Positions 25,655-45,826 of a DNA stretch of 64,000 nt are shown here, piece by piece; position 1 is the first letter of the stretch; every line of letters begins with the position of its first letter. Source of the stretch: Thermoanaerobaculia bacterium (GTDB lineage Bacteria; Acidobacteriota; Thermoanaerobaculia; Multivoradales; Multivoraceae); the NCBI GenBank assembly GCA_965116445.1, contig OZ220688.1:1349149-1413148 (forward strand). The letters run 5' to 3'. The notes below the pieces were generated by a model. It worked only from the letters and a program-made list of their open reading frames with translations, had not been told where the DNA came from and searched no databases. A program made the position numbers and the translations under genes.

Positions 25655-25730
25655 GTGGAGCGAGGCTGGCGCCTCGCGCGTTTCTCTCCGGAAAGCCGAC
25701 GGGGACGTCGGCGCACCCAGTCGGGCACGG
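25655..25730. repeat. REP-like element copy (GCGAGGC..GCCTCGCGCG hairpin + GCCGACGGGGACGTCGGCGCACCCAGT)
   Basis: Exact core motifs seen. Intergenic, upstream of the 25798 lipoprotein gene. Confidence 0.75.
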
Positions 25731-29249: not shown

Positions 29250-31319
29250 ATGGAGACGATCCGCATCGCCGCAGCAGCCGCCGTCTGTATCGTGCTCCTG
29301 GCCGCCTCCGCGGCCGGCCAGAACGGCGCCCCGGCCGGCGAGTGGCCGAGCTACGGCGGCGACGTGGGATCGACGAAGTACTCGCCGCTCGACCAGATCG
29401 ACGCCTCGAACTTCGGCGAACTCCAGAACGTCTGGCGCTGGCGCTCGGTCGACGGGTTTCTCAGCAAGAACGAAGCGGGCGGCGAGTGGCACGCCAGCCG
29501 CGACGCGATCTTCGATCGGCTGAAGGACGACGATCCCCTGCTGTGGCGCGCGGGCCGGGCGCCCTTCATCCGCAACCTGAAGGCGACGCCGCTGATGCAG
29601 GAGGGGTTGCTGTTCCTGAACACGCCGATCTCGATCGGGGCGGCGGTTCATCCCGGCACCGGCCGGACGGTCTGGGCCTACAACCCGAAGAGCTACGAGA
29701 GCGGCACGACGACGATGACCGTGGTCTGGAACCAGCGCGGCGTGGCCTACTGGACGAACGGCGAGGACGGCGAAGCCGCGGACAGCCGCGTCTACTGGGG
29801 CACCGGCGACGGCTACCTGCTCTCGGTCGACGCCCGCACCGGCCGACCGATCGAGGAGTTCGGGGACCGCGGCCGCGTCGACCTGATGGAAGGTCTGCCG
29901 CGCGCCAACCGCGGCGAGCGGGACTACCTGAACGCCCTTCTCTACTCGATGCAATCTCCGCCGGTCGTGGTGCGCGACGTCGTCGTGACCGGCGCCTCGA
30001 TCGCGGACCGCCGGATCACGAAGGAGTCGATCCCGGGCTGGGTGCGCGGCTGGGACGCGCGCACCGGCGAGCTGCGCTGGGTCTTCCGCACCGTGCCGCA
30101 GGAGGGCGACGAGGGCGTCGAAACCTGGGAAGACGAGTCCTGGCGCTACTCAGGCAACGCGAACGTCTGGACGATGCTCTCCGGCGACAACGAGCACGGG
30201 ATCGTCTACCTGCCCATCGGCACGGCGACGAACGACTTCTACGGCGGCCACCGGCCGGGCGACAACCTCTACTCCGAGAGCCTGGTCGCGGTCGACGTCG
30301 AGACCGGCGACAAGCTCTGGCACTTCCAGGCGGTCCGCCACGGCCTCTGGGACTACGACTTCCCGGCCGCGCCGACGCTGATCGACCTTCCGGGCGGAGA
30401 CGGCGCCGACCCCCGACAGATCGTCGCCCAGGTCAGCAAGCAGGGCTTCCTCTACGTGTTCGACCGGGTCACCGGCGAGCCCGTCTGGGAGATCGAGGAC
30501 CGTCCGGTGCCCCCGGCGACAATGCCCGGCGACACCGCCTCGCCCACCCAGCCGTTCCCGACGAAGCCGGCGCCGTTCGAATACCAGGGAGTGACGGAAG
30601 ACGATCTGGCCGACTTCACGCCGGAAATCAGGCAGATGGCCCTGGATGTGATCGCCAACTACGAGATCGGCCCGCTCTACACGCCTCCGTCCCTGCCGGT
30701 ACGAGGCGGCAAGCAGGGCACGATCTTCCGGCCGTCGGCCGGCGGCGGGGCGAACTGGTACGGCGCCGCGGTCGACCCGGAAACCGGCTGGCTCTACGTA
30801 CCGTCGCGGAACGCCTTCAGCATGGTCACGTTCTACACGCCGGATCCGCTGGAGGGCGGCACGCTGCGCTACACCCACGGCGGCCGCGGCCGGCGGCCCG
30901 AGATGCCGGAAGGTCTGCCCCTGTTCAAACCGCCCTACACGCGGATGACCGCGATCGATCTTGTGACCGGCGAGCACGTGTGGATGAAGCCGCTCGGCAA
31001 CAACGACACCCTGAGGAACCACCCGCGCCTTGCGGACCTCGACCTGCCCCCGCTCGGCGGCGACACGTACACCGGACCGCTGCTCACGAAGACGTTGCTG
31101 ATCCACGGCCAGCACGCCCCCGACGACGACGGCGGCAACCGGCTCGTGGCCCGGGACAAGCGGACCGGCGACGTGATCGCCGAGGCGCCGCTGCCGGCAC
31201 GCGGGCTCGGCACGCCGATGACCTACCTGTGGGAGGGCCGGCAGTACATCGCGCTGACGGTCGCCGGCAGGCGGGAGACGGACGGTGTGCCGGAGTTGAT
31301 CGCGTTCGCGCTGCCTTGA
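29250..31319 (+). CDS. PQQ-dependent dehydrogenase (quinoprotein, 8-bladed propeller), periplasmic
   Basis: Signal peptide. WPSYGGDVGSTKYSPLDQI ... LQNVWRWRS and repeated W-motif propeller blades. DYDF and PQEGDEGV segments typical of quinoprotein alcohol/glucose dehydrogenases. Confidence 0.75.
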   Translation: METIRIAAAAAVCIVLLAASAAGQNGAPAGEWPSYGGDVGSTKYSPLDQIDASNFGELQNVWRWRSVDGFLSKNEAGGEWHASRDAIFDRLKDDDPLLWRAGRAPFIRNLKATPLMQEGLLFLNTPISIGAAVHPGTGRTVWAYNPKSYESGTTTMTVVWNQRGVAYWTNGEDGEAADSRVYWGTGDGYLLSVDARTGRPIEEFGDRGRVDLMEGLPRANRGERDYLNALLYSMQSPPVVVRDVVVTGASIADRRITKESIPGWVRGWDARTGELRWVFRTVPQEGDEGVETWEDESWRYSGNANVWTMLSGDNEHGIVYLPIGTATNDFYGGHRPGDNLYSESLVAVDVETGDKLWHFQAVRHGLWDYDFPAAPTLIDLPGGDGADPRQIVAQVSKQGFLYVFDRVTGEPVWEIEDRPVPPATMPGDTASPTQPFPTKPAPFEYQGVTEDDLADFTPEIRQMALDVIANYEIGPLYTPPSLPVRGGKQGTIFRPSAGGGANWYGAAVDPETGWLYVPSRNAFSMVTFYTPDPLEGGTLRYTHGGRGRRPEMPEGLPLFKPPYTRMTAIDLVTGEHVWMKPLGNNDTLRNHPRLADLDLPPLGGDTYTGPLLTKTLLIHGQHAPDDDGGNRLVARDKRTGDVIAEAPLPARGLGTPMTYLWEGRQYIALTVAGRRETDGVPELIAFALP

Positions 31320-32260: not shown

Positions 32261-32968
32261 TCAGGCGCTGCCGGTTGCCGGCACGATGCGAGGCGGCGGC
32301 GCGGTCGCTTCGGCCTGGCGACGAGCCAGGGAGATCCGGGCACGGCGCGCCACGAACCAGACGCAGACGAGGAGCAGGGCGATCGCGTTGATCCGCAGCG
32401 GCAGGATCATCGTCGTGTGAACGGTTTCCGGTGAGGACTGCATCTGGTGGATGCTCCGCCACCAGTTCACCGAGTAGTACACGAGGGGCGCGTTGACCGA
32501 AGCGACGATGCTTGCCGCCGCCGTCCACGGCGCCCGCCGGTGCTCCTCGGCGAAGCGCCGGAGCGCCAGCACGCCGAGGAAGGTGAGCCACATGACGAAC
32601 GTGAAGGTCAGCCGCGGATCCCAGGCCCAGTAGACGCCCCAGGTCGGCTTGGCCCAGACGATCCCGGAGAGCAGCCCCGCCGTCTCGAGCACGACCCCGA
32701 CCTCGATGACCCCCACGAGCATGCCGTCGATCCAGGCCTTGCGCTTCCACAGGGAAGCCGCGCCCACGAAACCGGCGCCGAAGAAACAGAGCAGGGCGTT
32801 CCACTGCAAGGGAACATGGACGTAGAGGATGCGGTAGACCTCGCCCATGAACCGCTCCGTCGGCGCGACGAACAGGCCGACGTAGACGCCCGCCACGAGC
32901 AGCGCGAGACCGACGAGGCCGAACCAGTGTTCCCAAGCCCAAGGGCGCTTCGTGCCTGCGTTCGTCAT
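32261..32968 (-). CDS. CcmC-like cytochrome c assembly / heme-handling membrane protein (WWD domain)
   Basis: Trp-rich motif WGVYWAWDPRLT between TM helices, as in the CcmC/CcmF/CcsA family. No other ccm genes in the window. Confidence 0.6.
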   Translation of the reverse strand: MTNAGTKRPWAWEHWFGLVGLALLVAGVYVGLFVAPTERFMGEVYRILYVHVPLQWNALLCFFGAGFVGAASLWKRKAWIDGMLVGVIEVGVVLETAGLLSGIVWAKPTWGVYWAWDPRLTFTFVMWLTFLGVLALRRFAEEHRRAPWTAAASIVASVNAPLVYYSVNWWRSIHQMQSSPETVHTTMILPLRINAIALLLVCVWFVARRARISLARRQAEATAPPPRIVPATGSA

Positions 32969-36954: not shown

Positions 36955-37215
36955 GTCAGAGCGCTCGGAGTCTACGGCAGGACTCTTCAACCAGAGCCGG
37001 GAAAGGCGCCACGGGCTTGTATGGAACTGGCCGAATCACTGGGTGCGCCGACGTCCCCGTCGGCTTTCTGAGAGAAACGCGCGAGGCCGCAGGCCTAGCT
37101 CCTTCGTGCGGAGCCGGCCTGACGGCCGGGGCGTCTCTCCGGCTGCCTTCGGCAGCAGCCGGCGGGGACGCCGGCGCACCCAGTGGGCGGCCAGTTCCCT
37201 GCGCGTCGGCGCAGC
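36955..37215. repeat. Cluster of about 2-3 REP-like units (CACTGGGTGCGCCGACGTCCCCGTCGGCTTTCTGAGAGAAACGCGCGAGGCCGCAGGCC ... GCCGGCGGGGACGCCGGCGCACCCAGTG)
   Basis: Seen directly. Lies upstream of the 37300-44394 gene cluster. Confidence 0.8.
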
Positions 37216-37299
37216 GGAAGGCCGCAACCTGGCTGTTCCAGGCGAGTCAGCGCAGCGCACGCGCTGCTCTGACTGCTCGCCTGCGTATACTTCCACCCG

Positions 37300-37578
37300 A
37301 TGTCCATCGTGCGCGCCGCCGAGGTCGTCGTACTGCTCGGTGCCGTGTACGTCGCATGCGGACTCGTGTTCGCTCCGTTCTTCGTCTGGCGCGGCGTGGG
37401 CCGCGTCGACCCGGCCGCGAGGACAACCGGGCTCGGGTTCCGTCTGATCGTCCTTCCAGGCGTCGCCGCGCTGTGGCCGGTGCTGCTGCGGCGGTGGCTC
37501 GCCGGACGGCAGCCTCCGGCGGAGCGCAACGCGCACCGTGACGCGGCTGCCGGTCGAGGAAGGCGGGTAGACGGGTGA
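37300..37578 (+). CDS. Small 2-TM membrane protein (92 aa), first gene of the coupled operon
   Basis: Two hydrophobic helices. Stop overlaps the next start (GTGA). Confidence 0.45.
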   Translation: MSIVRAAEVVVLLGAVYVACGLVFAPFFVWRGVGRVDPAARTTGLGFRLIVLPGVAALWPVLLRRWLAGRQPPAERNAHRDAAAGRGRRVDG

Positions 37579-37766
37579 TCCGCGGTCTGCGAGGGCGCCA
37601 CCGCCTGATCTGGACCGTGCTGTTCCCGATCCTGGCGGTCCTGCTCGCCGCGGCGCTGCTATGGCGGCCCGCCCCCCCGCTCGCGGACAGCCTTCCGGAA
37701 GCGCGCGAGGTCGACGCTTCCCAAACCGGCGCCGACACCCCGGCACCGCGGGACGAGCCGCAGTGA
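37575..37766 (+). CDS. Small single-TM membrane protein (63 aa)
   Basis: GTG start inside GTGA overlaps on both sides. One TM helix. Confidence 0.4.
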   Translation: MIRGLRGRHRLIWTVLFPILAVLLAAALLWRPAPPLADSLPEAREVDASQTGADTPAPRDEPQ

Positions 37767-38902
37767 GCGCCGAGTACCAGGCCGTTCTTTGGAACCGCAA
37801 CAAGAAGCTCTACGACCTGGCCATCGCCACCGGAGTCGTGGTCTTCCTAGGTCTGTTCGTCGGCATCGGCATCGCAACCCGACCCCAGGCGACGATCGAG
37901 ACCCTGCTGATTCGCGGTTTCGGCGCCGGCGCCCTGCTGCTGCTCCACGTCGTGCTCGCCATCGGGCCGCTGTGCCGGCTGGACCGACGCTTCCTGCCCC
38001 TGCTCTACAACCGGCGCCACCTGGGTGTCTCCATGTTCCTGCTGGCTCTGGCTCACGGCGGATTCGCCGTCGTCCAGTTTCACGGCCTGGGCGTACTGAA
38101 CCCCCTGGTCAGCGTGCTGGCGAGCAACGGGAGATACGACAGCCTGTCGCAGTTCCCGTTTCAGGCGCTCGGCCTGCTGGCGCTCGCGATCCTCTTCCTG
38201 ATGGCGGCGACCTCGCACGACTTCTGGCTCGCGAACCTGACGGCGCCGGTCTGGAAGTCGCTCCACATGCTGGTCTACGCGGCCTACGGACTGATCCTCG
38301 TCCACGTGGCGCTGGGCAGCCTTCAGGCCGCCGAGCGACCGCCGATCCTCGCCGCCCTGCTGGGACTCGGATTCGCGTGCATCGCCTCGCTGCACCTGGT
38401 CGCCGGCTGGCGGGGCCGACTCTCGTCTCCGGAACGCGGCAGAGCGGCCAACGGGGACGATACGGCGAACGCGATGGACGCTGTCGACGTCTGCGCGGTC
38501 ACCGACATCCCGCTCGACCGCGCCCGCATCTTCCTGCTCGCCGGCGAACGCGTCGCCGTCTTCCGCTACCGGACGGACAAAGGCGAGTGGCTCGCCGCCG
38601 TCTCGAACGTCTGCCAGCACCAGAACGGGCCACTCGGCGAAGGCCGGGTCCTCGACGGCTGGATCACCTGCCCCTGGCACGGCTACCAGTACCGGCCCGA
38701 GGACGGCTGCTCGCCCCCGCCTTTCACCGAGAAGATCCCCACGTTCCACGTCCGCGTCGAGAACGGCCGGGTACTGGTCGATCCGCGGCCGAATCCGCCC
38801 GGTACGCGGGCGGAACCGGCGCGGGTCGCCGCTGCCGAAGGCCGGCTGGGTCGGCCTTCCAGCCGGCACTCCGGGGATCGCCGCCTCGGGGGTTCCTCGT
38901 GA
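37763..38902 (+). CDS. Ferric-reductase-like transmembrane (di-heme b) domain fused to a C-terminal Rieske [2Fe-2S] domain
   Basis: 6 TM helices with conserved His pairs (LLLLHVVLAIGP ... LALAHGGFAV ... LHMLVYAAYGLILVHV), then CQHQNGPLGEG ... CPWHGYQY (Rieske CxH...CxxH). GTGA overlaps at both ends. Confidence 0.6.
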   Translation: MSAEYQAVLWNRNKKLYDLAIATGVVVFLGLFVGIGIATRPQATIETLLIRGFGAGALLLLHVVLAIGPLCRLDRRFLPLLYNRRHLGVSMFLLALAHGGFAVVQFHGLGVLNPLVSVLASNGRYDSLSQFPFQALGLLALAILFLMAATSHDFWLANLTAPVWKSLHMLVYAAYGLILVHVALGSLQAAERPPILAALLGLGFACIASLHLVAGWRGRLSSPERGRAANGDDTANAMDAVDVCAVTDIPLDRARIFLLAGERVAVFRYRTDKGEWLAAVSNVCQHQNGPLGEGRVLDGWITCPWHGYQYRPEDGCSPPPFTEKIPTFHVRVENGRVLVDPRPNPPGTRAEPARVAAAEGRLGRPSSRHSGDRRLGGSS

Positions 38903-39897
38903 CCGGCGATCGCCAGGACGAACTGTACGTCGGCTACCTCGACGAGACGCCGCCCAGCGTGGCGCGGTTTGTGCGCCGTATCGCGATCGGCCTCCTGCTG
39001 CTGGCCGTGGTCCTGGGCGCCGGTCTTGCGCTGCTGCTCGAGCCGTTCGACGAAGGAGTGTTCGAGTACGGCACGGTGAGAGACTACGAGGGAGAACTGC
39101 TCGTCGATCCACATCCCCGGCTGCTCACGGCCGATGGACCGGCTCAGGGCTATCTGCTGGTTGGGGTCGGAAAGCACGGACTGGACGTGAATCTGGAGTC
39201 CAACCCGCCCTGGTCGCCCTCGCTCTCCTGGAGTACCGCGCTTTCGGGCTCGCTGATCGAGAACCGGGACGCGGCGATGCTCGAGGTCCACGTGCTCGAG
39301 CCTCCCGAGAGAACCGCCGTGGCTGGGCCCGCCGTCGAATCGGGCGCTCCAGCAAGTCCGGCAACCGACCGGGAGCGGCTCGACACCGAGGGCCCTCACC
39401 CTTCATCCGACGCGATCCCGGGGCCGCCGAACGCAGCAGCCAACGTCGTTCGCCTGCGCGGGCAGACCTTGCTGGGCGAAATCGTCGACACGAAGTGCTA
39501 TCTGGGCGCGATGAAGCCGGGCCGGGGCAAAGCCCACCGGGGCTGCGCCTCGCTCTGCATCAGCGGCGGCATTCCGGCCGCGCTCCTGGTCCGAACGGAA
39601 GACGGCAAGCGGGAACTGGTCCACCTCGTGGACCTCGGCGGCCGGCCATTGGGACGCGAGATCCTCGACTGGGTCGGCCAGCCGGTCGAAGTCACCGGCT
39701 TCCTGCATCGCCAGGACGACCGCCTCTTCCTGGCGACCGCCATATCCGACGGGAGCTCCGCGGCGACGACCATTCGCCCCTACCCCGCGGCCGAGTTCCC
39801 CGGCGCCGAGGCGGTCCTCGATCGACCCGGCCCGCCGAACGAACGCTCGCGCAAGTCCGGCAGCGGCGCCCCCGGACCGGAGGGGCGCCCAGGATGA
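38899..39897 (+). CDS. Membrane-anchored hypothetical protein (N-terminal TM, about 280-aa extracytoplasmic region)
   Basis: GTGA start overlap. Single TM IAIGLLLLAVVLGAGLALLL. C-terminal Cys pair CYLGAMKPGRGKAHRGCASLCISGG. No family recognised. Confidence 0.45.
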   Translation: MTGDRQDELYVGYLDETPPSVARFVRRIAIGLLLLAVVLGAGLALLLEPFDEGVFEYGTVRDYEGELLVDPHPRLLTADGPAQGYLLVGVGKHGLDVNLESNPPWSPSLSWSTALSGSLIENRDAAMLEVHVLEPPERTAVAGPAVESGAPASPATDRERLDTEGPHPSSDAIPGPPNAAANVVRLRGQTLLGEIVDTKCYLGAMKPGRGKAHRGCASLCISGGIPAALLVRTEDGKRELVHLVDLGGRPLGREILDWVGQPVEVTGFLHRQDDRLFLATAISDGSSAATTIRPYPAAEFPGAEAVLDRPGPPNERSRKSGSGAPGPEGRPG

Positions 39898-40745
39898 ACG
39901 CCAGGGTCGTGAACGCAAGTCCCTCAGAGGGCGGCATCGACCGAAGTGGCGGCCCGATTCCCAGCCCCGAACTCCTGCCCGACGGCCAGATCGAGGTCGG
40001 CAGCTATCGGCTCCGGTTTGCACGCACGGCGGCCGACATCGACCGGCTGCTGGCGCTGCGCTTCGAGGTCTTCAACCTGGAACTCGGCGAGGGCCTTACG
40101 GAGTCCTTCGCCACCGGCCGCGACACGGATCGTTTCGACGCGAGCTGCCACCACATGCTGGTCGAGGAAGAGAACGGCCAGCTCATCGGCACCTACCGCA
40201 TGCAGACGGCGGCCATGGCCGCGCGCGGTCATGGCTTCTACTCGGCCGGCGAGTACGAACTGGACGCCATACCCGGAAGCGTCCTCGATCAGTCGGTCGA
40301 GATCGGCCGCGCCTGCATCCACCGCGAACACCGCAAGCGCACGGTGCTGTTCCTGCTCTGGAAGGGCCTGGCCCGGTACCTCGTCCACAACCGCTGCCGC
40401 TACCTGTTCGGCTGCTGCTCCCTGACCAGCCAGGATCAGGCGGCCGGCATCCGGCTCTACCGGCAACTCAATGCGGCCGGCAAGGTGATGACCGACCTCG
40501 ACGTGCCTCCCCTGCCCCACACCCGCTGCGAGGCGACCGACGATCAGGTAGCCGCAATCCCCGACATCAAGGTGCCGCCGCTCTTCGCCACCTATCTCCG
40601 CTACGGCACCCTGGTGTGCAGCCGCCCGGCGATCGACCGGGAGTTCAAGACGATCGACTACCTGGTCCTGATGGACACGGCCGCGTTGAGCCGGCGCACG
40701 CGGTTGATCTTCGGGCTCAACGAAGCGCCGGCGGCGGCGCTCTAG
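39894..40745 (+). CDS. olsB: OlsB/GlsB-family N-acyltransferase (GNAT Acetyltransf_5; lyso-aminolipid / N-acyl amino acid synthase)
   Basis: ATGA overlap with the upstream gene. SYRLRFARTAADIDRLLALRFEVFNLELGEG and GTYRMQT ... RKRTVLFLLWKGLARYL are hallmarks of OlsB-like hemolysin-type N-acyltransferases. Confidence 0.7.
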   Translation: MNARVVNASPSEGGIDRSGGPIPSPELLPDGQIEVGSYRLRFARTAADIDRLLALRFEVFNLELGEGLTESFATGRDTDRFDASCHHMLVEEENGQLIGTYRMQTAAMAARGHGFYSAGEYELDAIPGSVLDQSVEIGRACIHREHRKRTVLFLLWKGLARYLVHNRCRYLFGCCSLTSQDQAAGIRLYRQLNAAGKVMTDLDVPPLPHTRCEATDDQVAAIPDIKVPPLFATYLRYGTLVCSRPAIDREFKTIDYLVLMDTAALSRRTRLIFGLNEAPAAAL

Positions 40746-40794: not shown

Positions 40795-41661
40795 ATGCAG
40801 CCGAGAACCAGCAACCCCCCGCTGCTTGGGCCCCTCCGGCTCTGGCGGTTGATCTGGCGGGCGCCGGCTCTGCTGGTCGCGGCCCTGACCGCCTGGCTCC
40901 CGCTGCTCGTTCTGCGACCCCTCCTGGCACGACCGGCGCCCCGATCCTGGCGAGCCGTCCTCCGCACCGTGCTCCGGTGCTGGGGACGCACAAGTCTCGC
41001 GATCCTCGGCTGCAGGGTGACCGTACGCGGCAAGGCGCCCAAGAGTCCCTTCCTGCTCATCTCGAACCACATCTCATACCTCGACATTCTTCTGCTTTCG
41101 GCCTTCACGCCCGGCCTCTTCGTGTCCAAGGCGGAGATTCGGAGCTGGCCGGTGGCCGGCGCCATGTGCCGGACGGTAGGCATCATCTTCGTCGACCGCC
41201 GCCGGCGCCGGGACGTGACGCGCGTCGGCGAGCAGATCGCCGCAGCGCTCGCGGACGGCGACTCCGTGATCCTGTTCCCCGAAGGGACGTCGACACCCGG
41301 CCGAGAGGTGACGCCACTCAAGCCGTCCCTGCTGGCGCCGGCCGCCGGGCAGGAGCTCGCCGTGCACTGGGCCGTCATCCGCTACCGGACGCCGCCCGAC
41401 GAGACGCCCGCCTTCCTGAGCGTTGCCTGGTGGGGAGAGATGCCCATGGTGCCCCACGCCCCCGACCTGCTCAGGCTCCGGCGCATCGACGCGGAAATCG
41501 AGTTCGGCGAAGAGCCGGTGCGGTGCGCCGACCGCAAGGAGCTCGCCCGCCTCCTGCGCGAGCGGATGGCGGACCGGTTCCGGCCGATGGTCTCGAGCGA
41601 GGAACTCGCGGCCATCGGCGACCTCCACGGCCCCGTCGGGATTCCCGAACGCCGCGACTGA
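40795..41661 (+). CDS. olsA: OlsA/PlsC-family lysolipid O-acyltransferase (LPLAT)
   Basis: ISNHISYLD (HX4D), FPEGTS motif and N-terminal TM. Immediately downstream of the olsB-like gene, as in olsBA / glsBA pairs. Confidence 0.7.
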   Translation: MQPRTSNPPLLGPLRLWRLIWRAPALLVAALTAWLPLLVLRPLLARPAPRSWRAVLRTVLRCWGRTSLAILGCRVTVRGKAPKSPFLLISNHISYLDILLLSAFTPGLFVSKAEIRSWPVAGAMCRTVGIIFVDRRRRRDVTRVGEQIAAALADGDSVILFPEGTSTPGREVTPLKPSLLAPAAGQELAVHWAVIRYRTPPDETPAFLSVAWWGEMPMVPHAPDLLRLRRIDAEIEFGEEPVRCADRKELARLLRERMADRFRPMVSSEELAAIGDLHGPVGIPERRD

Positions 41662-41721: not shown

Positions 41722-44394
41722 GTGACGAGAGACGATCGACTGCGGCCGCAACGGGCGACCTGGTGGAAGATCGCGACCGCGGTCTACCTCGTCCTGCTGC
41801 TGGGCTCGACGCTGACGCGCATCGTCGCCGAACCGGATCCGCTGCCCCGGGGCCGGGAGACGACGGAAATCGACTCGTCGGCAACCGCTGACCGACCAGT
41901 CCGCATGGCGTGGCGGGAGTGGGGCGAGCCGGTCGCCGCCGACGCCCCGGGCGAAGACGCCCTGCCGCTCGTCCTCCTCCACGGATCGCCAGGCAGCGCC
42001 GACGACTTCCGGCGCCTGGCGCCCCACCTGGCTTCAGGGCGCCGCATCATCGCTCCCGACCTCCCTGGATTCGGCGCCTCCGAGCAGCGGGTGAACGACT
42101 ACTCGATCCGCGCCCATGCCGAGGCGACCCTCGCCCTGCTCGACGAACTCGGCGTGGGGCGTTTCCACGTCCTCGGCTTCAGCATGGGCGGCGGCCCCGC
42201 CCTGCACCTGGCGGACAACGCTTCGGACCGCGTCGCGTCCGTGGTGCTCGTCGCCTCGGTCGGCGTTCAGGAGCTCGAACTGCTCGGCAACTACACGGTG
42301 AACCACGGCCTGCACGGTTTGCAGCTCGGCCTGATCCGGGGCCTGCGCAACCTGGTCCCCCACTTCGGCGCCTTCGATCAGCCGATCGCCCACTCCTACG
42401 CCCGCAACTTCTACGACACGGACCAGCGGCCTCTGCGCGGCATCCTCAAGACCCTGGAAGCGCCGGTCTTCATCGTCCACGGCGAGCAGGATCCGCTCGT
42501 GCCGGCCGCCGCGGCGCTGGAGCACCACCGGATCGTGCCTCACAGCGAGCTGTGGATGCGGCCGGACAGCCACTTCTTCCTGTTTCGCGGCGGCGGGGAC
42601 CTCGCGTCCCGGATCGACGGGTTCCTGGAACGCGTCGAAGCCGGCGAAGCGCCGACCCTGGCCTTTGCCACGCCGGAGCGGCTGCGCCGGGCGGCGATGC
42701 CGTTCGACGACATGGACCTGCCGCCGTTTGCCGGGCCGGCCCTGCTGATCGTCTTCCTGCTCCTCGTGTTCGCCGCGTACCTGAGCGAGGATCTGACCTG
42801 CATCACGGCGGGCCTGCTGATCGCACAAGGGCGCCTCGACTTCCCGGTCGGCGTGGCGGCCTGCTACCTCGGCATCCTGAGCAGCGACCTGGGCCTCGCC
42901 TGGCTGGCGCGCGTTCTGGGCCGGCCCGCGCTCAGGCTGCCGCCCTTCAAGTGGTGGGTCAGCGAAGCGGCCGTCGAGGAGGCTTCGGCATGGCTGCGGC
43001 GCCGGGCGCTCGTCGTCGTCCTGGTCAGCCGCTTCCTGCCCGGCACGCGCCTGCCGACCTGCCTCGCCGCCGGCATCCTGCGCACCAGCCTGCTCCGGTT
43101 CTGCTTCTACTTCGGCGTCGCCGTGGCGATCTGGACGCCCGCCTTCGTCGGTCTGAACGTGCTGCTGGGCCGCGAGGCCGTCGAGCGCTTCGGCGGCCGT
43201 CTGCCCGGCGGCCTGCTGGCGGCAGTGCTGGCGCTGGGGCTCGTGATCCTCAGCGTCCGCACCTTCGTCCTGCCGCTCTTCACTTGGCGCGGGCGTCGGC
43301 TGCTGCGCGGCCGGCTGCTCCGCATCCGGCACTGGGAGTTCTGGCCCATGTGGGTGTTCTACCCGCCGCTCGTGCTCTACATCCTGTGGCTCGGTCTCCG
43401 GCGCGGCAGCCTCGCGGCGTTCACCGCGGTCAATCCGGCGATGCCGCTGGGCGGCCTGCAGGGCGAGTCGAAGAGCGACATTCTGGACGGCCTGGCCGGA
43501 ATCGGCGAGGCGTTACCGGCATGGACGCGCCTGCCGCCGGGGAAGCCTGAGGGTTTGCCGACGAGGAACGCACTGCCTTTACCAACGGAGAACCTGGCGA
43601 CACGGGTCGCGGCCCTGCAGCGGTTCCTGCGGGACGAGGATCTGGACTACCCGGTCGTCCTCAAGCCGGACACCGGCGAGCGGGGACGCGGTATCGCCGT
43701 GGCGCACTCGGAAGCCGAAGCGATCGCGTTCTTCGAGGCGACTCCCGGACCGGCGCTCGTGCAGGAGTACGTGGCAGGCGAAGAGTACGGCGTGTTCTGG
43801 GCCCGCCACCAGGGCCGACGTGACGGGCAGGTCTTCTCGATCACGCACAAGGTGCGGCCGACCGTGACGGGCGACGGCGCCAGCACCCTGGAACGGTTGA
43901 TCCTCGAGGACCGGCGAGCGGTAGCCATCGCGCACCTCTACCGGCGGGAACACCCCCAGGCCGCGAAGCGCGTACCCGAAGCCGGCGAAGTCGTCGAACT
44001 GACCGAGGTCGGCGCGCACTCCCGCGGCACGATCTTCCTGGACGCGAACGATCTCCACACCCCGGAACTGGAACGGGCGATCAACACGATCAGCACTGCC
44101 TACGCAGGCTTCGACTTCGGCCGCTTCGACATACGCGTCCCGACCGCCAAGGCGCTCCAGCGTGGCGAGGGAATCCGGGTGCTCGAAGCGAACGGCGTGA
44201 CCTCGGAAGCGACCCACATGTACGACCGCCGCTACGGCTTCTTCGCCGCCCACGCGATCCTGCGCCGGCAGTGGCGGAAGGCCTTCGACCTCGCCGACGA
44301 GCGCATCCGTGCGGGCGCCCGGCCCGCGAGTGTGAGCGAAGTCCTCCGCGCCATTCGGGCCGAACGACGAGCCAGGAACGAAGGGCCGCACTGA
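41722..44394 (+). CDS. 890-aa tri-domain fusion: alpha/beta-hydrolase + DedA/SNARE-associated membrane domain + ATP-grasp ligase (RimK/Ddl-like)
   Basis: N-terminus: LVLLHGSPGSADDF ... LGFSMGG ... HGEQD ... H (Ser-Asp-His triad). Middle: LTCITAGLLIAQGRLDF ... VSRFLPGTRLPTCLAAGIL (DedA) plus extra TMs. C-terminus: YPVVLKPDTGERGRGIAV ... LVQEYVAGEEYGV ... FGRFDIRV ... RVLEANGVTSEATHMYD (ATP-grasp). Confidence 0.65.
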   Translation: MTRDDRLRPQRATWWKIATAVYLVLLLGSTLTRIVAEPDPLPRGRETTEIDSSATADRPVRMAWREWGEPVAADAPGEDALPLVLLHGSPGSADDFRRLAPHLASGRRIIAPDLPGFGASEQRVNDYSIRAHAEATLALLDELGVGRFHVLGFSMGGGPALHLADNASDRVASVVLVASVGVQELELLGNYTVNHGLHGLQLGLIRGLRNLVPHFGAFDQPIAHSYARNFYDTDQRPLRGILKTLEAPVFIVHGEQDPLVPAAAALEHHRIVPHSELWMRPDSHFFLFRGGGDLASRIDGFLERVEAGEAPTLAFATPERLRRAAMPFDDMDLPPFAGPALLIVFLLLVFAAYLSEDLTCITAGLLIAQGRLDFPVGVAACYLGILSSDLGLAWLARVLGRPALRLPPFKWWVSEAAVEEASAWLRRRALVVVLVSRFLPGTRLPTCLAAGILRTSLLRFCFYFGVAVAIWTPAFVGLNVLLGREAVERFGGRLPGGLLAAVLALGLVILSVRTFVLPLFTWRGRRLLRGRLLRIRHWEFWPMWVFYPPLVLYILWLGLRRGSLAAFTAVNPAMPLGGLQGESKSDILDGLAGIGEALPAWTRLPPGKPEGLPTRNALPLPTENLATRVAALQRFLRDEDLDYPVVLKPDTGERGRGIAVAHSEAEAIAFFEATPGPALVQEYVAGEEYGVFWARHQGRRDGQVFSITHKVRPTVTGDGASTLERLILEDRRAVAIAHLYRREHPQAAKRVPEAGEVVELTEVGAHSRGTIFLDANDLHTPELERAINTISTAYAGFDFGRFDIRVPTAKALQRGEGIRVLEANGVTSEATHMYDRRYGFFAAHAILRRQWRKAFDLADERIRAGARPASVSEVLRAIRAERRARNEGPH

Positions 44395-45046: not shown

Positions 45047-45826
45047 CTAGGAACTGTGGGCTTCGGCGAGTCGCCGCTTCACTGTCTCGAGGGGGTTGCG
45101 GTAGTCCACCGTGCCAAGACCCTTGTTGGTCAGCTTGTAACCGATCAACTCCTGCAGCTTCTCCGGCATCTCCACGACGACGTCCCACGGCACGCCGACG
45201 TACTGGTTCTCGCGCTGCTTGAGCCACGCCAGGTTGAAGTTGAAGTTGATGGAGCGCCGATAGCCGCTGTCCGTCGAGTTCCCTCCGCCACGGTGCCAGA
45301 CGGCGCCGTCCCAGAGGAACAGGGCCCCGGCCGGCATCTCCACCGTCAACGTGGGCACGTCCGGATCGACCGGATCGGCCGAGCGATGGCTGCCGGGAAC
45401 GATCTCCGTTGCCCCGTTCTCGGCCGTGAACGGATCGAGTGCGATCAGCGTGTTGGCGATCAGGGGGAAGTGCGGGCGCGCAAGCGGGTAGTGGCCGTCG
45501 TCCTGGTGCATCCGCTGGCGACGGTCCCCCGGCCCCGGCCGCATCGCGGCGACGCCGGAGACCTGATAGTCCGGGCCGAGCACCGCCTCGACGAGCCCCA
45601 GCAGACCATCGTCCATCAGCAGTTCGTCGACGGCCCGCGTCTTGGCGAGCAGGTTGTGCGTGTGGATCGTCTGCTGACCGTAGTCGTCCGTCAGCCGGCT
45701 GCCGATTTCCTCGAACACGGGGTCGAGACCCCGCTTCAGCCGTTCCAGCCTCTCCTCGCCGAGGAAATCGGGCACCACCGTGTAGCCGTCTTCGCGAACC
45801 TGCCGTGCTGATCTCTCGATGTCCAT
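45047..45826 (-). CDS. Phytanoyl-CoA dioxygenase (PhyH) family Fe(II)/2-oxoglutarate oxygenase
   Basis: HQDDGHY ... (HxD), GATEIVPGSH, LFLWDGAVWHRGG typical of the PhyH family. Confidence 0.75.
   Translation of the reverse strand: MDIERSARQVREDGYTVVPDFLGEERLERLKRGLDPVFEEIGSRLTDDYGQQTIHTHNLLAKTRAVDELLMDDGLLGLVEAVLGPDYQVSGVAAMRPGPGDRRQRMHQDDGHYPLARPHFPLIANTLIALDPFTAENGATEIVPGSHRSADPVDPDVPTLTVEMPAGALFLWDGAVWHRGGGNSTDSGYRRSINFNFNLAWLKQRENQYVGVPWDVVVEMPEKLQELIGYKLTNKGLGTVDYRNPLETVKRRLAEAHSS

Follow-up and report, generated by a model that had tools for sequence, protein, structure and literature searches.

A 64,000-nucleotide stretch of DNA from Thermoanaerobaculia bacterium (assembly GCA_965116445.1, contig OZ220688.1, positions 1,349,149 to 1,413,148 of the forward strand; hereafter, the window) was analyzed around ORF-C, an open reading frame (ORF) for a 379-amino acid protein in which a ferric-reductase-like transmembrane domain (FRD) is fused to a C-terminal Rieske [2Fe-2S] domain. 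ORF-C probably conducts electrons across the membrane in the manner of MsrQ, takes them in through its own Rieske domain, and passes them on to the product of the next gene, ORF-D. Its constant partners are ORF-A and, above all, ORF-D, both of which were missed in the first-pass annotation of this DNA; the four genes A to D overlap one another and are followed by genes of an aminolipid type.

Gene structure and domain content of ORF-C

An ORF check returned exactly the limits previously assigned to ORF-C (37763-38902, + strand). Its GTG start codon overlaps the stop of the small upstream ORF-B and its own stop overlaps the GTG of ORF-D. The GTG at 37763 was preferred over an upstream ATG at 37661 because the homologues begin at the same residue (MS..YQAV.WNR.KKLYD). 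The stop of ORF-A likewise overlaps the start of ORF-B, which is thus flanked on both sides by GTGA overlaps; overlaps of 4 nt chain all of the genes from A to E, the last of them (D-E) being an ATGA at 39894-39897, and ORF-F and ORF-G come after gaps of 49 and 60 nt.

Both domains of ORF-C were recovered by Pfam above the curated cut-offs: Ferric_reduct (PF01794) with an E-value of 1.9e-12 and 47.8 bits (cut-off 28), and Rieske (PF00355) with an E-value of 3.4e-14 and 52.9 bits (cut-off 20.3); Rieske_2 also matches. The domain fusion described in the first-pass annotation is therefore borne out, and so is the general idea of a transmembrane electron-transfer module composed of a six-helix FRD and a Rieske domain. 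The CQHQ and CPWH motifs are present at C284-Q-H286-Q (nt 38612-38623) and C303-P-W-H306 (nt 38669-38680). NCBIfam added matches below threshold to NirD, to Rieske ferredoxins, to MsrQ and to the FRD region of MamZ. The domain content, conservation and operon setting of ORF-C are not chance matches.

Probable cofactor sites of the membrane domain

Conservation was assessed in two samples, one of 79 orthologues from more than 10 phyla, drawn from 80 genomic loci, and one of 88 representatives of clusters at 50% identity. Among the 79 orthologues, the Rieske ligands C284, H286, C303 and H306 and the membrane histidines H86, H98, H107, H152, H168 and H181 are 100% conserved; among the 88 representatives each of these ten residues is kept in 74-86 sequences, with H98 found in 83 and H181 in 86. 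Absence of the Rieske ligands or of four haem-ligating histidines had been named beforehand as grounds for rejecting the initial assignment. Neither ground applies: the four Rieske ligands and six membrane histidines proved invariant in the orthologues. The canonical inner histidine of transmembrane helix (TM) 3, at the position of NOX2 H101, is Arg84.

To place these residues, E. coli msrQ was aligned to ORF-C by BLASTP, hhalign and MAFFT. The register given by the alignments is unambiguous, and the aligned residues are conserved across the family: R84, R85, H98, M147, S151, W164, H168 and H181 of ORF-C correspond to R77, R78, H91, L131, S135, W147, H151 and H164 of MsrQ, respectively, the M147 position being M or L within the ORF-C family. 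In E. coli MsrQ, H91 and H164 are the ligands of a single b haem, and flavin mononucleotide (FMN) is bound on the cytoplasmic side; the R77A and R78A substitutions abolish FMN binding, H151A destabilizes it, and an AlphaFold model sets L131, S135 and W147 around the flavin too (PMC12525009). The YedZ/STEAP clade, in turn, is defined by a conserved arginine in place of the first canonical haem histidine (Zhang 2013, PMC3591440).

ORF-C lacks the four-histidine pattern of the NOX/FRE proteins (NOX2 H101/H115 in TM3 and H209/H222 in TM5). It does have the one TM3 and one TM5 histidine expected of an outer haem, H98 and H181, which align with MsrQ H91 and H164, and it carries both the arginine-for-histidine exchange and the flavin-pocket residues of the YedZ/MsrQ-STEAP clade: R84, aligned to MsrQ R77, is conserved in 82/88 representatives, and R84, R85, S151 and W164 are each kept in 82-85 of them. 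No C-terminal FAD/NAD(P)H dehydrogenase domain of the NOX/FRE type was detected with Pfam or NCBIfam, only the Rieske domain after TM6. Because Arg84 replaces the canonical histidine and the MsrQ FMN-site residues all match, the best inference is that the membrane domain is of the MsrQ/STEAP type, and that one outer haem b with an inner flavin is likelier than a di-haem arrangement.

The label "di-haem" given to this domain at first is accordingly not borne out, although the invariant H86 leaves a residual doubt. H86 is Leu79 in MsrQ and lies two residues past R84, where it does not coincide with the canonical inner ligand. It may touch the flavin, the Rieske domain or a second haem; in the last case it could act as a ligand together with H168, and that haem would occupy the place of the flavin. 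ORF-C would then be a true NOX/FRE-type di-haem protein, with H86/H168 around the inner haem, H98/H181 around the outer one, and a Rieske cluster that feeds the inner haem directly. All four of these histidines are invariant, H168 is at the inner-haem ligand position of NOX/DUOX (PMC12525009), and a fused one-electron Rieske donor needs no flavin to convert two-electron into one-electron transfer. We nevertheless regard this arrangement as unlikely, though worth keeping in mind: with Arg84 at the canonical position, H86 points about 200 degrees round the helix and is separated from H98 by an 11-residue spacer, as against 13 residues between H101 and H115 of NOX2 (PMC3591440), and a pure haem site would not need the FMN-pocket residues that the great majority of the representatives retain.

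The Rieske domain and its orientation

The AlphaFold2 (AF2) model of ORF-C consists of six long helices (residues 12-39, 45-73, 84-108, 134-151, 161-188 and 194-221) followed by a beta-rich Rieske fold. Family-wide, the mean number of lysines and arginines is 3.3 in the N-terminus, 4.3 in loop 2-3, 1.3 in loop 4-5 and 3.6 after TM6, compared to 0.5, 0.9 and 0.3 in the three loops assigned to the periplasm. Loop 2-3 also contains the two arginines that correspond to those of the FMN site of MsrQ, which is on the cytoplasmic side. No twin-arginine motif was found ahead of TM6, where the sequence reads QAAERPP. From the six helices, the charge bias and the lack of a twin-arginine motif, the Rieske domain can be placed in the cytoplasm, and both this topology and the assignment of ORF-C as a conduit are held with high confidence; this is the topology prediction that the first-pass annotation had proposed as a check. 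Known dual Sec/Tat membrane Rieske proteins have an odd number of transmembrane helices, a twin-arginine motif ahead of the last helix, and a periplasmic Rieske domain (Tooke et al. 2017). A periplasmic, Tat-exported Rieske domain was considered for ORF-C and ruled out by the same three features, six helices, no twin-arginine motif and the positive-inside bias.

The closest PDB matches of the Rieske domain are the ferredoxins BphF, CarAc and that of naphthalene dioxygenase, with an E-value of 5e-5 by sequence; Foldseek returned the same ferredoxins with a probability of 1.00 and a TM-score of about 0.7 on the target. A Foldseek search with the whole ORF-C model gave Rieske matches only, and the membrane domain was not among the top 50. 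The disulfide cysteines of the high-potential bc1/b6f Rieske proteins are absent (CQHQNGPL...CPWHGY, with no extra cysteine), and the domain, judged by sequence and model, resembles the low-potential Rieske ferredoxins. It shares with BphF, CarAc, the naphthalene dioxygenase ferredoxin and NirD the fold, the CxH...CxxH ligands, the lack of the high-potential disulfide, and a presumed role as one-electron shuttle; it differs from them in being tethered to a membrane cytochrome, with no oxygenase or nitrite reductase as partner. Past the Rieske domain the protein ends in some 40 residues of low complexity. The 2-His-1-carboxylate catalytic domain of a Rieske oxygenase alpha subunit was not found there, and matches to oxygenases span the Rieske part alone.

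ORF-D as the likely electron acceptor

Neighbouring genes were counted in 80 loci picked by similarity to ORF-C, 53 of which have at least 6 kb of sequence on both sides (well-flanked loci). ORF-D is found directly 3' of ORF-C in 79/80 loci and in 53/53 well-flanked loci; ORF-A lies upstream of the FRD-Rieske gene in 78/80 and 52/53, respectively. About half of the full-length representatives are approximately 600 amino acids in length and are C-D fusions, in the order FRD, Rieske domain, FYVGY linker, transmembrane helix, D, with one extra helix after the Rieske domain. A D-like region is present in 45 of the 150 top cluster representatives, and 43 of these 45 keep the pattern C..G.M.{7}H..C. 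These fusions indicate that C and D work together, and they fit the predicted topology, with the Rieske domain inside, one more helix, and D outside.

ORF-D has a short cytoplasmic N-terminus with the FYVGY motif, one transmembrane helix, and two OB-like (oligonucleotide/oligosaccharide-binding) periplasmic beta-barrels with a helix-loop-helix insert (AF2 model, predicted local distance difference test (pLDDT) score 76.7). The insert carries a signature whose family form is G-E-I-V-D-x-K-C-x-x-G-x-M-x-P-x5-H-x-x-C-A-x-x-C-I-x-G-G. Within it, K199, C200, G203, M205, P207 and K211 are invariant, and conservation reaches 90% or more at H213, C216 and C220. This Cys/Met/His/Cys(/Cys) site probably either binds a metal, which may be copper, or works through redox-active thiols. 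With moderate confidence, adjacency, fusion and this ligand-like motif together point to ORF-D as the electron acceptor of ORF-C.

Searches for relatives of ORF-D returned little. Pfam and NCBIfam gave no family, save a weak DUF5818 match in 4 of 33 homologues; a profile search against PDB sequences yielded one chance-level match, to superoxide reductase (E 1.1); and Foldseek against the PDB produced weak matches to OB folds (SSB, RPA and the anticodon domain of lysyl-tRNA synthetase; best E 0.1), which suggest the barrel type and no functional relative. All homologues of ORF-A and ORF-D are named "hypothetical protein" in the databases.

A further explanation for the pair is that ORF-C is a STEAP-type reductase of periplasmic Fe(III) or Cu(II), that ORF-D captures the reduced metal, and that the lipid genes are merely co-regulated. 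The membrane domain does belong with the YedZ/STEAP clade, and the ORF-D motif is composed of soft-metal ligands, its CxxxC plus histidine arrangement presumably being like that of the Sco copper proteins. Genes for secreted YHS-domain proteins were noted nearby in 16/80 loci, and among distant loci a heavy-metal P-type ATPase is encoded about 6 kb away in L168 and a resistance-nodulation-division (RND) adaptor about 1 kb downstream in L172. Still, metal transporters are not regular neighbours of the pair, whereas lipid, DinB, TANGO2 and ATP-grasp genes are, and no metallochaperone was recovered for ORF-D by Foldseek against the PDB; a dedicated metal reductase thus seems a rather unlikely account. 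The comparison with the STEAP proteins is also only partial. STEAP1-4 have the same single outer haem, inner flavin site and arginine-for-histidine signature (PMC3591440; PMC12525009), and STEAP2-4 likewise fuse a cytoplasmic electron-input domain to the membrane domain, but their input is an N-terminal NADPH-binding dehydrogenase whereas that of ORF-C is a C-terminal Rieske domain, and STEAP proteins reduce free metal chelates, with no dedicated partner protein.

Linkage to aminolipid genes

Downstream of D, ORF-E and ORF-F belong to the same two families as OlsB and OlsA and stand in the same order, N-acylation then O-acylation (PMC11631085). Neither comes near the equivalog cut-offs, of which they attain roughly one third to one half: ORF-E reaches 125 bits against NCBIfam OlsB models with cut-offs of 320-350, and is hence OlsB-like and no equivalog, and ORF-F reaches 132-143 bits against OlsA models with a cut-off of 300. 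Both appear to be aminolipid-type acyltransferases, of which the head group is not fixed by these scores. ORF-G, the third lipid gene, has an ATP-grasp domain, which points to a head group extended by one more amino acid or amine. In other genomes, genes for DinB-like and TANGO2/NRDE proteins are located ahead of ORF-G, so that, in comparison to the ols loci described to date, related genomes add DinB-like, TANGO2/NRDE and ABH-DedA-ATP-grasp (ABH, alpha/beta hydrolase) genes in a larger module.

Two side observations concern ORF-G and its surroundings. In Terriglobales and Bryobacteraceae the gene is split, or lacks the hydrolase domain. Just past it, at 45047-45826 (- strand), an ORF was noticed that by eye resembles a phytanoyl-CoA dioxygenase (PhyH)-type Fe(II)/2-oxoglutarate oxygenase; it is kept in 7 close-relative loci only, and this PhyH-like ORF is the sole candidate oxygenase near the lipid genes.

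The linkage was tested in both directions. Around ORF-C, E was found in 48 of the 80 loci, G in 43, the DinB-like gene in 33, F in 27 and TANGO2/NRDE in 26. For the reverse test, 80 metagenomic loci (L081-L160) were picked with an ORF-G profile, 27 of which have at least 6 kb upstream of G. At least one lipid-module gene lies within about 10 kb in 41 of the 53 well-flanked ORF-C loci (77%), and ORF-C is present in only 9 of the 27 G-selected loci (33%), and most of the 27 keep E, F and DinB; as both locus sets consist of best-scoring matches and are phylogenetically non-independent, these percentages are indicative only. Gene orders and orientations around ORF-C vary between loci, which argues that the association of C with lipid genes is not merely inherited synteny. 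The reverse count, in turn, indicates that the lipid module is autonomous and that A-B-C-D is its frequent but facultative companion: E, F, the DinB-like gene, TANGO2/NRDE and G form a conserved module of their own, and many metagenomic loci have this module but no FRD-Rieske genes. The asymmetry between 77% and 33% is as an accessory function would show.

The lipid setting recurs in distant fused members. A C-D fusion in L165 has DinB, TANGO2 and a 374-amino acid gene downstream and a DoxX-like gene upstream; L164 has KAS-III, hydrolase, acyl-AMP ligase and reductase genes upstream and a PlsC-type acyltransferase gene downstream; and L168, by contrast, is set among PstS-like, ATP-binding cassette (ABC) and PhoU genes.

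The original placement of ORF-C in a lipid-synthesis operon thus holds, both by the overlaps from A to E and by a linkage that recurs across phyla. Co-occurrence with olsB homologues, which had been proposed as a check, gave a two-sided answer: the association is real on the side of ORF-C, and facultative on the side of the lipid module.

The use first proposed for such electrons was a redox step on the lipid, and specifically its hydroxylation or desaturation, with ORF-C supplying electrons to an oxygen-dependent enzyme. Translational coupling with the OlsB-like gene, the asymmetric linkage that an accessory tailoring function would produce, and the fact that Rieske ferredoxins normally serve oxygenases are all in keeping with that idea. 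Yet no di-iron, 2-His-1-carboxylate, His-box or P450 domain, and thus no oxygen-activating catalytic domain, was found in A, B, C or D, nor in the conserved neighbours; the electrons would be exported to the periplasmic side, away from cytoplasmic desaturase chemistry; and the ornithine-lipid hydroxylases OlsC, OlsD and OlsE are unrelated enzymes which need no such module. Hydroxylation or desaturation is therefore improbable. A redox sensor, the other role suggested at the outset, was not supported either, as there is neither an output domain nor a constant regulator.

Family distribution and comparison with MsrQ

The ORF-C family comprises at least 8000 proteins according to a word-indexed search, the best 120 of which all carry both domains; a HMMER scan of 1.84 billion cluster representatives returned 250 representatives at E <= 1e-30. 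Within the Acidobacteriota, loci were found in Thermoanaerobaculia/'Ca. Multivorans', Blastocatellia, Terriglobia and Bryobacteraceae; elsewhere they occur in Gemmatimonadota, Planctomycetota, Myxococcota, Kiritimatiellae, Calditrichia, KSB1, Verrucomicrobiota, Acidimicrobiia, Rhodothermia and Krumholzibacteriota, and in one gammaproteobacterium. The locus proteins are 55-87% identical to the ORF-C query, and the nearest relatives of the window are 'Ca. Multivorans'/Thermoanaerobaculia and Holophagales-type metagenome-assembled genomes (80-91% identity). That the core proteins remain 55-65% identical across phyla implies strong selection.

MsrQ (YedZ), which forms the haem b/FMN membrane subunit of MsrPQ, a periplasmic methionine sulfoxide reductase of E. 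coli, is the best characterized relative. It has the same six-helix FRD fold, the same Arg-Arg/Ser/Trp/three-His register and the same predicted orientation (PMC12525009), and it too hands electrons from the cytoplasm to a periplasmic partner of its own whose gene is adjacent. The two proteins differ in several respects: identity is about 33% over 120 residues, well under the NCBIfam cut-off; MsrQ relies on the soluble flavin reductase Fre, whereas ORF-C has its fused Rieske domain; ORF-C has the extra invariant histidines H86, H107 and H152 and the small subunits A and B; and the partner of MsrQ is a molybdoenzyme, while that of ORF-C is ORF-D, with its OB-like barrels and Cys/Met/His motif. 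The possibility that ORF-C, given this kinship, is a plain MsrQ orthologue serving an MsrP encoded elsewhere, in a local context without meaning, is close to refuted by a score of 35.3 bits against the NCBIfam equivalog NF003831 (cut-off 130), by the lack of any MsrP homologue in the operon or the 80 loci (tblastn with E. coli MsrP), and by a constant, often fused ORF-D and a Rieske domain that MsrQ does not have.

Proposed electron path

Under the reading favoured here, a cytoplasmic reductase would reduce the Rieske cluster of ORF-C. From there the electron would enter the helix bundle at its cytoplasmic end, where the cofactor is most likely a flavin bound, as in MsrQ, by R84, R85, S151, W164 and H168; one haem b (H98/H181), near the periplasmic face, would come next, and the periplasmic Cys/Met/His/Cys(/Cys) site of ORF-D last. 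ORF-A and, in most lineages, ORF-B would act as accessory membrane subunits. The reducing power probably serves a periplasmic reaction tied to the aminolipid, or to an envelope condition of its synthesis; confidence in the chemical reaction and in its relation to the aminolipid is low.

Candidates for the first step are provided by some lineages. Two soluble enzymes with an N-terminal Rieske domain adjoin the A-C-D module in 10/80 loci (including L032, L040, L043, L070 and L076): the first is thiamine pyrophosphate (TPP)-dependent, of the pyruvate-oxidase/acetolactate-synthase type, and the second is a GltS-like (glutamate-synthase-like) FMN enzyme. Among the distant loci, Rieske-TPP genes are neighbours in L162 and L163 (L162:10330-12270) and Rieske-Glu_synthase genes in L170 (5764-7374) and L171 (694-2343). 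By their adjacency, these enzymes may be the cytoplasmic redox partners of the module.

Several points weigh against the proposed path. The window offers no reductase that could serve the Rieske domain: no ferredoxin reductase was found in its 64 kb, nor any homologue of the Rieske-TPP or Rieske-GltS genes. That electrons flow outwards is an assumption taken over from MsrQ, STEAP and NOX. ORF-D is without a recognizable relative, so that its redox role is argued from adjacency, fusion and the Cys/His/Met motif alone, and the AF2 models are only moderately confident (pLDDT 76). The invariant H86, which MsrQ lacks, could belong to the site of a second haem rather than of a flavin. As for the lipid connection, about a quarter of the ORF-C loci have no lipid gene within 6-10 kb, two thirds of the G-selected loci do without ORF-C, and the sampling of both sets is non-independent, as described above.

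The upstream genes and flanking regions

The positions of all features are collected in Table 1.

Table 1. Location in the window of the genes, domains, residues and promoter-like element of the module
Feature	Position	Strand	Basis
TATACT, 8 nt 5' of the ORF-A ATG	37286..37291	+	alignment with 9 close relatives
ORF-A, 92-aa small membrane protein, two predicted helices, first gene of the module	37300..37578	+	neighbour counts
ORF-B, 63 aa, N-terminal membrane anchor, truncated form	37575..37766	+	cluster c8 match
ORF-C, MsrQ/YedZ-type FRD protein with C-terminal Rieske domain	37763..38902	+	Pfam, NCBIfam, homologues, AF2
ORF-C predicted six-helix FRD membrane domain, residues 12-221	37796..38425	+	AF2 helices, MsrQ alignment
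ORF-C R84, R85, H86	38012-38020	+	
ORF-C H98, proposed haem ligand	38054-38056	+	
ORF-C H168, flavin-site equivalent (with S151, W164)	38264-38266	+	
ORF-C H181, proposed haem ligand	38303-38305	+	
ORF-C predicted cytoplasmic Rieske [2Fe-2S] domain, residues 241-340, ligands C284/H286/C303/H306	38483..38782	+	Pfam, NCBIfam, PDB matches
ORF-D, 332 aa, proposed periplasmic electron acceptor	38899..39897	+	neighbour counts, fusions, AF2
ORF-D signature, residues 193-224, GEIVDTKC200YLGAM205KPGRGKAH213RGC216ASLC220ISGG	39475..39570	+	insert in second barrel
ORF-E, OlsB-like N-acyltransferase (GNAT, Acetyltransf_5)	39894..40745	+	Pfam E 1.3e-28
ORF-F, OlsA/PlsC-like O-acyltransferase	40795..41661	+	Pfam PF01553 E 1.6e-20
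ORF-G, 890 aa, alpha/beta hydrolase + VTT/DedA + RimK/cyanophycin-synthetase-like ATP-grasp	41722..44394	+	Pfam, NCBIfam

Neither ORF-A nor ORF-B has a Pfam or NCBIfam match, and the 395 homologues of ORF-A are, without exception, named "hypothetical". ORF-B occurs in a long form of about 170 amino acids, an anchored periplasmic protein, in 40/80 loci (25/53 well-flanked loci). The N-terminus of the copy in the window (RGLRGRHR and the transmembrane helix) matches the 42-member cluster c8. The periplasmic domain of ORF-B seems to be dispensable, as this copy keeps the membrane anchor only, whereas in most other lineages the long form stands at this position. No A-C fusion was found among the cluster representatives; one B-C read-through was seen.

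The hexamer TATACT upstream of ORF-A is identical in the window and in 9 close relatives, while the rest of the intergenic region diverges; it may be the -10 element of a near-leaderless operon transcript. A second conserved block, GGAGTCTACGGCA, is located further upstream, near a divergent amidohydrolase gene. The promoter region of ORF-A also contains, in the window, an insertion of about 260 nt which is absent from the 9 close relatives and in which a 29-nt inverted repeat is found (arms 37037-37065 and 37157-37185, 93% complementary, with 91 nt between the arms). Further copies of this repeat family lie at 25700, 27697, 29059, 31339, 35250 and 55253, and the 23-nt arm CACTGGGTGCGCCGACGTCCCCG has 8 occurrences in the window compared to 0 expected. 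The repeat upstream of ORF-A looks like a member of an intergenic family of the repetitive extragenic palindrome (REP) or miniature inverted-repeat transposable element (MITE) kind.

Genes for a CcmC-like haem exporter/cytochrome c assembly protein (32261-32968, - strand) and for a pyrroloquinoline quinone (PQQ)-dependent dehydrogenase (29250-31319, + strand) were recognized by eye 5-8 kb upstream of the module, and are kept with it in close relatives only.

Significance

The bare two-domain architecture of ORF-C is not new. FRD and Rieske domains were catalogued together as the bacterial model M4, among the six modular extensions that bacterial FRD proteins show (Zhang et al. 2013, PMC3591440). 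The figure legend for M4 gives FMN and Rieske, and the article offers no function, partners, cofactor analysis or genomic context (PMC3591440). As catalogued, M4 has both domains of ORF-C. No functional study of an FRD-Rieske protein, or of this gene cluster, was found in the open-access literature. Relative to that literature, the new elements are the MsrQ type of the membrane domain, with its Arg-Arg pair and flavin-site residues; the constancy of A and D as partners; the fusions of C with D; the motif of ORF-D; and a quantified, asymmetric link to an extended set of aminolipid genes.

The annotation of ORF-C is corrected accordingly: it is no di-haem ferric reductase, no MsrQ and no oxygenase component, as best its residues and neighbours allow it to be read, and defined residues are now available for mutation. 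MsrPQ is, to our knowledge, the sole bacterial YedZ-type system with a characterized function; in the ORF-C family the same membrane wire appears to be reused with a built-in Rieske entry and a different, unannotated periplasmic partner. ORF-D itself may represent a new fold for redox chemistry or metal binding. Acidobacteriota, Gemmatimonadota, Planctomycetota, Myxococcota and other phyla of soil and sediment that resist cultivation carry the ORF-C family in abundance, and the recurrent linkage of the family to the lipid module gives two uncharacterized systems a testable connection.

One tentative scenario, which we put forward as a possibility and no more firmly than that, is that A-B-C-D constitutes a widespread and so far undescribed envelope redox machine. 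ORF-D, a protein of a new class with a periplasmic Cys/Met/His centre, would draw its electrons from a self-contained Rieske-flavin/haem wire and use them on the outer side of the inner membrane to reduce a metal, a lipid-linked thiol or the head group of an aminolipid. If this is true, the lipid biochemistry of Acidobacteriota, Gemmatimonadota, Planctomycetota and other phyla would include an extracytoplasmic, electron-dependent step without known precedent.

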